Below are positions 1 to 1,762 of a stretch of 2,827 nucleotides of DNA, one piece after another; position 1 is the first letter of the stretch; every line of letters begins with the position of its first letter. This DNA is from Enterobacteria phage CUS-3, in sequence record FN394988.1; one strand, 5' to 3'. The position numbers and the translations under genes were made by a program. The notes under the pieces were generated by a model that was not told the origin of the DNA, ran no database searches, and was given only the letters and a program-made list of their open reading frames with translations.

Positions 1-543
1 ATGGCGCGCCCAACAAAGTATCAAGAGGCGTATGCCGAACAGGCACGCAAACTGTGCTTGCTGGGCTACACCGATGCAGAGCTTGCTGATTTCTTCGAAG
101 TCAGTGAGTCAACTATTAACAAGTGGAAGCTTGATTATCCTGAGTTTTCGGAGTCCATAAAAAAGGGTAAGGCCGTCGCTGATGCAGAAGTTAGTGACCG
201 TCTTTATCAACGCGCTATGGGCTTCGTGGCTCCAGACATCGATATTCGTGTTATTGAAAACAGAATTGTCGAAACTCCTCTTGAGAAGTATTACCCGCCT
301 GATACAACAGCTGCCATCTTCTGGCTTAAGAACCGACAGAAGGATAAATGGCGCGACAAGGTTGATCACGAGCTAACAGGCAAAGACGGCGGCGCAATCC
401 AGATTGAAACATCACCGATGAGTACTCTATTCGGAAAANNNNNNNNNNNNNNNNNNNNNNNNNNNNNNNNNNNNNNNNNNNNNNNNNNNNNNNNNNNNNN
501 NNNNNNNNNNNNNNNNNNNNNNNNNNNNNNNNNNNNNNTCTGA
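1..543 (+). CDS. Phage terminase small subunit (TerS, HTH-containing DNA-recognition subunit); 146 codons readable (1-438), 3' end lost in N run
   Basis: ATG at 1 in frame +1; translation MARPTKYQEAYAEQARKLCLLGYTDAELADFFEVSESTINKWKLDYPEF...AAIFWLKNRQKDKWRDKVDHELTGKDGGAIQIETSPMSTLFGK. The N-terminal RPTKY...helix-turn-helix...W(K/L)xxxPEF pattern and the FWLKNR...WRDK motif are characteristic of enterobacterial phage small terminase subunits (recalled family pattern, not searched). The stop at 541-543 lies beyond the N run, so the true 3' end is not established. Confidence 0.7.
   Translation: MARPTKYQEAYAEQARKLCLLGYTDAELADFFEVSESTINKWKLDYPEFSESIKKGKAVADAEVSDRLYQRAMGFVAPDIDIRVIENRIVETPLEKYYPPDTTAAIFWLKNRQKDKWRDKVDHELTGKDGGAIQIETSPMSTLFGKXXXXXXXXXXXXXXXXXXXXXXXXXXXXXXXXXX
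67..129 (+). other. Predicted helix-turn-helix DNA-binding motif within TerS (residues ~23-43, YTDAELADFFEVSESTINKWK)
   Basis: Helix, short turn, then recognition helix ending in a conserved Trp, at the N-terminus as in small terminase DNA-binding domains. Assigned by eye. Confidence 0.45.
439..538. other. Run of 100 N (assembly gap of conventional unknown length, or mask)
   Basis: Counted directly; exactly 100 N, not a multiple of 3. Confidence 0.99.
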
Positions 544-1762
544 GCCATGTGTAAAATATTATGATGGCATTCTGTATCTGACGACCAGGGGGACATTAAG
601 TACTCAACCCGGTAGTTCATTGCACAGAAGCTCTGATTTAGGTACATCATGGAATTCTCTTCGCTTCCCAAATAATGTTCATCACTCAAACCTTCCTTTT
701 GCCAAAGTTGGCGATGAGCTGATTATTTTTGGCAGTGAGCGCGCATTTGGTGAGTGGGAAGGAGGAGAACCTGATAACCGTTATGCAGGAAACTATCCAA
801 GAACATTTATGACCAGAGTTAACGTCAATGAGTGGAGTCTGGATAATGTAGAGTGGGTTAATGTTACTGATCAGATTTATCAGGGCGGAATAGTTAACTC
901 TGCGGTTGGTGTTGGTTCAGTTTGTATCAAAGACAACTGGCTGTACTACATTTTCGGTGGGGAAGACTTTCTAAACCCATGGAGCATAGGGGATAACAAC
1001 AGAAAATATCCTTATGTTCACGATGGTCACNNNNNNNNNNNNNNNNNNNNNNNNNNNNNNNNNNNNNNNNNNNNNNNNNNNNNNNNNNNNNNNNNNNNNN
1101 NNNNNNNNNNNNNNNNNNNNNNNNNNNNNNNNNNNNNNNNNNNNNNNNNNNNNNNNNNNNNNNNNNNNNNNNNNNNNNNNNNNNNNNNNNNNNNNNNNNN
1201 NNNNNNNNNNNNNNNNNNNNNNNNNNNNNNNNNNNNNNNNNNNNNNNNNNNNNNNNNNNNNNNNNNNNNNNNNNNNNNNNNNNNNNNNNNNNNNNNNNNN
1301 NNNNNNNNNNNNNNNNNNNNNAGCGGCGGTGAAACAACGTCTTCAGCAGATGGTGCAATGATAACGTTGCATGGTTCCGGAAGCAGTACTCCACGTCGCG
1401 CGGTATATAACGCACTCGAACATCTTTTTGAGAACGGAGATGTTAAACCTTATCTTGATAATGTAAATGCTCTTGGTGGTCCGGGAAACAGGTTCTCGAT
1501 AGTTTATCTTGGCTCCAATCCTGTGGTTACCAGTGACGGAACATTAAAGACAGAGCCGGTCTCTCCTGACGAAACATTGCTGGATGCCTGGGGTGACGTC
1601 AGGTATATCGCTTATAAATGGCTGAACGCTGTCGCTATAAAGGGGGAAGAAGGGGCGAGGATACATCATGGTGTAATCGCGCAGCAACTTCGTGATGTTC
1701 TTATTTCTCACGGACTCATGGAAGAAGAAAGCACAACATGCCGCTATGCCTTTCTTTGCTAT
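542..1762 (+). CDS. Tailspike/tail fiber with sialidase-like beta-propeller segment and C-terminal intramolecular chaperone (Peptidase_S74) domain; endosialidase-like; partial at both ends, interrupted by N run 1031-1321
   Basis: Frame +2 has no stop in 542-1030 (EPCVKYYDGILYLTTRGTLSTQPGSSLHRSSDLGTSWNSLRF...NWLYYIFGGEDFLNPWSIGDNNRKYPYVHDGH) or 1322-1762 (SGGETTSSADGAMITLHGSGSS...NPVVTSDGTLKTEPVSPDETLLDAWGDVRYIAYKWLNAVAIKGEEGARIHHGVIAQQLRDVLISHGLMEEESTTCRYAFLCY). First block has an Asp-box (SSDLGTSW). Second block matches the S74 pattern S-D-x-x-L-K ... Y-x-W-K/L ... G-x-I-A-Q. No start codon is visible: the first in-frame ATG is at 809, well inside the domain. Confidence 0.6.
629..652 (+). 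other. Asp-box (BNR) motif S-x-D-x-G-x-[ST]-W, hallmark of sialidase-fold beta-propellers
   Basis: Codons agc tct gat tta ggt aca tca tgg = SSDLGTSW in frame +2. Confidence 0.6.
1031..1321. other. Run of 291 N inside the tailspike reading frame (97 codons if length is literal)
   Basis: Counted directly; 291 = 3 x 97, and frame +2 is open on both sides. Confidence 0.99.
1532..1552 (+). other. Predicted autoproteolytic maturation site of the S74 intramolecular chaperone domain (SDGTLKT; cleavage expected after the Ser)
   Basis: In S74-domain tail fibers and endosialidases the C-terminal chaperone is released by cleavage at a conserved Ser in an S-D-x-R/x-L-K motif; SDGTLKT sits at the expected distance upstream of the YKW and GVIAQ motifs. 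Confidence 0.45.

Follow-up and report, generated by a model that had tools for sequence, protein, structure and literature searches.

The endosialidases of phages K1F (endoNF) and phi92, members of a class that we take to be CAZy family GH58, are close structural homologs of the tailspike described here. EndoNF is represented by several crystal structures (1V0E/1V0F, 3GVJ-3GVL and 3JU4, with the chaperone in 3GW6) and the phi92 enzyme by 4HIZ. SiaK1 (ABQ88383.1), the endosialidase of phage CUS-3, has in common with endoNF the propeller, the stalk and the chaperone, and the paper attached to it is reportedly Stummeyer et al. 2006. In the complete CUS-3 genome (CP000711) the gene is annotated as 'endosialidase tailspike protein; endo-alpha-sialidase activity [Evidence IDA] PMID 16689790', and the table of a review lists the protein as an endo-N-acetylneuraminidase among the characterised K1 depolymerases. 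The self-cleaving C-terminal chaperone with its Ser/Lys dyad has a wider distribution, being shared with the phi29 neck appendage (3GUD), the tailspikes 9VVR, 6EU4 and 7Y5S and the eukaryotic MYRF, all of which are without the endosialidase propeller. For the self-cleavage of endosialidases, a Ser/Lys dyad five residues apart has been described (MYRF paper, PMC3742443). The gene, the phage, its close structural homologs and the neighbouring neuO have all been described before, and nothing in the locus presented below is new.

The window that we analysed is a stretch of 2827 nucleotides, in which positions 539-1762 almost certainly contain two fragments, in one frame, of the gene for the endosialidase tailspike (siaK1) of CUS-3, a P22-like prophage of E. 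coli K1 (Table 1). Compared with siaK1 in CP000711, the DNA of fragment 1 shows 100% and that of fragment 2 99.8% identity, and no evidence contradicting the identification was encountered in the analysis. The gene is the same as that in CP000711, the window containing 311 of its 981 codons (residues 487-650 and 748-894 only). The chromosome of E. coli G749 is 100% identical across window positions 539-2827. This strain has an intact tailspike CDS of 2946 nt, after which come neuO, intS and tRNA-Arg, an arrangement that fits a CUS-3-type prophage inserted at the tRNA-Arg site. The end of the prophage (tailspike, neuO, intS) adjoins tRNA-Arg and yfdC at positions 7575-7649 of the G749 locus (L004). 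A match to at least part of the window was present in 648 of 5426 complete E. coli genomes, and in 215 records the best match at the record level had at least 99% identity.

Table 1 Features of the 2827-nt window, with positions counted from its first nucleotide
Feature	Position (nt)	Strand	Description
Small terminase subunit piece	1-438		First 146 codons; 100% identity to CP000711 22268-22705
100-N run	439-538		Arbitrary spacer; stands for ~18.3 kb of phage genome between small terminase and siaK1
siaK1 fragment 1	539..1030	+	Residues 487-650 of 981, C-terminal part of the catalytic beta-propeller
Glu488	542..544	+	Equivalent to K1F catalytic E581; ungapped alignment; PMC12632334
LYLTTRGT	572-595		Peptide motif, frame 2
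Arg503	587..589	+	Equivalent to K1F active-site R596; ungapped alignment; PMC12632334
Asp-box SSDLGTSW	629..652	+	Residues 517-524, second of two in the full protein
Arg554	740..742	+	Equivalent to K1F active-site R647; ungapped alignment; PMC12632334
NWLYYIFGGEDF	935-970		Peptide motif, frame 2
291-N run	1031..1321	+	siaK1 codons 651-747: propeller end and first part of the stalk, unsequenced in the record
siaK1 fragment 2a	1322..1531	+	Residues 748-817, C-terminal end of the stalk (tail-spike), up to the maturation cleavage site
siaK1 fragment 2b	1532..1762	+	Residues 818-894, first 77 residues of the C-terminal intramolecular chaperone (peptidase S74)
Ser818 / Lys823 dyad	1532-1534 / 1547-1549	+	S818-D-G-T-L-K823, S-x4-K arrangement
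SDGTLKT	1532-1552		Peptide motif, frame 2
YIAYKW	1604-1621		Peptide motif, frame 2
GVIAQQLRDVL	1670-1702		Peptide motif, frame 2
N-masked rest of siaK1	1763..2026	+	Codons 895-981 and stop; 87 residues left past fragment 2
neuO	2180-2827		Hexapeptide-repeat (left-handed beta-helix) acetyltransferase NeuO; Pfam Hexapep E=4e-11

The first-pass annotation had described an endosialidase-type tailspike at 542-1762, with an Asp-box and propeller-like segments upstream of the start of an S74 domain. All six peptide motifs that it quoted were found in a single frame (frame 2), open throughout 539-1030 and 1322-1762, and the two alternative frames are full of stop codons. The gene content assigned to this span was right, but its limits were not: coding runs from 539, and the span is interrupted by 291 N at 1031-1321. 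This run is exactly as long as the 97 codons that lie between the two fragments in siaK1 of CP000711, so that both share one reading frame.

Three Pfam families cover the readable parts of the protein. Fragment 1 matched PF12217 (End_beta_propel) with E=1.6e-104 and 350 bits, fragment 2a, the end of the stalk, matched PF12219 (End_tail_spike) with E=1.2e-32 and 113.6 bits at profile positions 91-160 of 160, and fragment 2b matched PF13884 (Peptidase_S74, 'chaperone of endosialidase') with E=1.4e-11 and 44.9 bits at profile positions 1-58 of 58. The cut-offs of these families are 24, 25 and 22 bits respectively, and as sequence matches all three are far beyond chance. Together with the matching structures of K1F and phi92 they bear out the endosialidase architecture proposed in the first-pass annotation, including its remark that the propeller is only partly visible, since the match covers profile positions 192-355 of 367. 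The N run hides the beginning of the stalk, and 77 of the 164 residues of the chaperone domain can be read in the window. NCBIfam had no model matching the terminase or either endosialidase fragment, which says something about the library and nothing about the protein.

Sequence identity, domain content and the conservation of catalytic and cleavage residues were computed here against the known endosialidases. Fragment 1 aligns without gaps to residues 580-743 of K1F endoNF with 68.9% identity, and fragment 2 is 65.8% identical to the same protein, fragment 2a pairing with the last 69 residues of the mature chain (1V0E/3GVK). In the PDB, fragment 1 matched 4HIZ of phi92 (1.8e-83) and 1V0E/3GVK of K1F (3.3e-80), and fragment 2 matched the K1F stalk-plus-chaperone structure 3GW6 (E=1e-60). 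The fold is settled by the ungapped alignment, at 69% identity, to crystal structures. The phi92 endosialidase has the same propeller and is the best PDB match for fragment 1, but it differs from CUS-3 by a two-residue indel in the propeller piece and by a far more divergent stalk (fragment 2, E=2.8e-07).

The N-terminal half of the propeller lies outside the window and is present in the full-length CUS-3 protein. Residues 145-817 of this protein could be aligned to K1F endoNF with only one indel, an insertion of 7 residues in CUS-3 located upstream of the window's fragments. The two proteins part ways at the end that attaches to the virion. Residues 1-127 of CUS-3 resemble the head-binding domains of P22, Sf6 and related phages (7SG7, 2VKY, 8TVR, 1LKT; E=1e-44 to 8e-64), a match that spans the first 118-127 residues of the full-length protein, also outside the window, and that makes this N-terminus of the P22 gp9 type. 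The N-terminus of K1F, in contrast, is of the T7 tail-fibre type according to a review. The P22-type N-terminus of CUS-3 is in line with the modular exchange known from the literature.

The key catalytic residues of K1F endoNF are H350, R549, E581, R596 and R647, as given in a deep mutational scan of its tailspike (PMC12632334). The equivalents of the last three are found in fragment 1, while those of H350 and R549 are His250 and Arg456, two residues of full-length CUS-3 located beyond the window. The K1F numbering of the alignment is fixed by the mature K1F chains in the PDB, which stop one residue short of the position aligned with the Ser at nt 1532, and it is confirmed by K585 and N699 (PMC12632334), which land on a Lys and an Asn. 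The Asp-box pattern S-x-D-x-G-x-[TS]-W occurs in the full protein at residues 262 (SGDDGKTW) and 517, the latter lining up with SRDIGQTW at residues 610-617 of K1F. The Ser/Lys cleavage dyad is also shared with endoNF, and the position of Ser818 is an Ala in the crystallised 3GW6 protein. In K1F numbering the cleavage site is presumably Ser911/Lys916; a literature search for this numbering gave no result.

A sialidase propeller could also belong to an enzyme of the exo type, freeing terminal sialic acid, and not to an endo-acting depolymerase of polysialic acid. Asp-boxes and six-bladed propellers are features of exo-sialidases too. However, the phage endosialidase propeller is the sole Pfam family matching fragment 1, for which no exo-sialidase family appeared at E<=0.1 in Pfam, and every PDB match of this fragment is an endosialidase. 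Furthermore, endo-cleavage of alpha-2,8 polysialic acid by the CUS-3 protein is taken from the genome annotation, where the endo-alpha-sialidase activity is credited to a direct assay (PMID 16689790), and from reviews. We therefore regard an exo-acting enzyme as very improbable.

Even less credit can be given to a non-sialidase tail fibre or tailspike that would share only the S74 chaperone, as the K5 lyase or the T5 L-shaped tail fibre do, and would carry its Asp-box by chance. The S74 domain does occur in unrelated fibres, as the first-pass annotation had pointed out, and 3GUD, 9VVR, 6EU4 and 7Y5S match the chaperone part of fragment 2. These non-endosialidase proteins, however, match at 1e-13 or weaker and are limited to the chaperone part and the adjoining end of the stalk, whereas the best homologs are endosialidases (E=1e-60 to 1e-83). 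The 164 residues upstream match the endosialidase propeller family, and the ungapped K1F alignment keeps the catalytic Glu and Arg residues. The propeller match and the alignment to endoNF rule out a fibre of this kind, and an endosialidase tailspike is the reading that we follow.

As to its nature, the window is a sequence-typing record that joins partial terminase, siaK1 and neuO sequences, and it is not contiguous genomic DNA. It consists of four readable segments (1-438, 539-1030, 1322-1762 and 2180-2827) with N runs of 100, 291 and 417 bases between them. Among the matches listed in a DNA search of phage records, 17 GenBank records of 2827 bases each coincide with the window coordinates, all of them under the title 'Enterobacteria phage CUS-3 partial proviral terminase gene, siaK1 gene and neuO gene, genotype GT_n' and with E. 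coli K1 isolates as source. One of these records, FN394986.1 (GT_2), is a single base apart from the window, at nt 1379, and another, FN394998.1 (GT_14), is 14 bases apart. The typing records annotate four partial CDS, namely the small terminase subunit, siaK1 twice and neuO, the last one as K1 capsule O-acetyltransferase. The series probably originates from a population study of CUS-3 and neuO by Mordhorst et al. 2009, which is reference 13 of PMC3046976.

The N runs differ in what they represent. In CP000711, siaK1 fragment 1 starts at 4013 and is separated from the terminase piece (22268-22705) by 18,254 nt, so the run of 100 N is an arbitrary spacer. The run of 417 N, on the other hand, is exactly as long as the stretch that separates siaK1 codon 894 from the start codon of neuO in CP000711, made up of 264 nt of remaining siaK1 (fragment 2 ends at 6224 and the gene at 6488 of the CP000711 locus, L002) and 153 nt of intergenic sequence. 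The gene adjacency apparent in the window is artificial and, given the artificial junctions of a typing record, there is nothing to conclude from it. Taken at face value, with the terminase piece just 100 positions from the middle of the propeller, the DNA might pass for a decayed prophage remnant with a 5'-truncated endosialidase ~100 bases downstream of a terminase gene, but this has practically no chance of being correct and is ruled out by the structure of the record, in which every piece is annotated as a partial CDS, and by the complete genomes, in which the two pieces lie far apart (CP000711) and both CUS-3 and the chromosome of E. coli G749 have full-length genes of 2946 nt.

Regarding the genes that flank siaK1 in this typing record, the terminase piece gave only sub-threshold Pfam matches (helix-turn-helix and terminase-small, E ~0.01-0.07) and none in NCBIfam, so that its assignment as small terminase subunit rests on the deposited annotation. 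The neuO fragment ends short of the stop codon of the gene. NCBIfam has no dedicated NeuO model, and the fragment showed a sub-threshold likeness to galactoside, maltose and streptogramin O-acetyltransferases in this library.

The start of neuO, at 2180-2190, reads ATGTT directly followed by GTTTTCC. These two blocks are separated in CP000711 by 19 copies of the heptanucleotide AAGACTC (L002 6647-6779), and neuO of E. coli G749 has 32 copies (L004 5147-5370). In the literature the repeat is located two nucleotides after the start codon. Since CUS-3 has AAGACTC repeats at this site, the typing record omits the phase-variable repeat and displays an artificial zero-repeat, in-frame allele. With either 19 or 32 copies the gene is out of frame (phase off), and in the G749 annotation neuO appears merely as a 3' 'acyltransferase' fragment.

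A single position sets siaK1 of the window apart from both FN394986.1 and CUS-3 of strain RS218: at nt 1379 there is a G instead of an A, giving Gly767 in the stalk domain where the RS218 protein has Arg767. FN394993.1, FN394998.1 and E. coli G749 carry Gly767 as well. The K1F residue aligned with 767 is an Asn, which indicates that the position is variable. It is very unlikely that Gly767 alters the binding of polysialic acid or processivity and in this way separates CUS-3 genotypes functionally. A neutral polymorphism is far more likely, because the residue is not conserved in K1F and the allele recurs in further typing records as well as in complete genomes of E. coli.

The 981-residue protein is tripartite: its head-binding N-terminus of the P22 type is followed by a catalytic region (approximately residues 145-817), consisting of a six-bladed beta-propeller and a stalk, and then by the chaperone domain at 818-981. 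By homology with K1F we infer trimerisation, self-cleavage and a role in infection. The chaperone domain would assist three chains in folding and in forming a trimer and, after assembly of the trimer, may release itself at Ser818 by means of the Ser818/Lys823 dyad. As in K1F, the mature trimer on the virion would then bind the alpha-2,8 polysialic acid of the K1 capsule and cut it internally, and cleavage of the capsule could give the phage access to the cell surface.

The first-pass annotation was correct in calling an endosialidase and in identifying a K1 depolymerase; what it missed was the composite nature of the typing record, the stalk between propeller and chaperone, and that the protein had already been characterised. 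The matter can be closed as a well-known gene, characterised by experiment, with solved structures of close homologs (1V0E, 3GW6). Endosialidase tailspikes serve as reagents and candidate therapeutics, and they are the route of K1-specific phages through the polysialic acid capsule of neonatal-meningitis E. coli.
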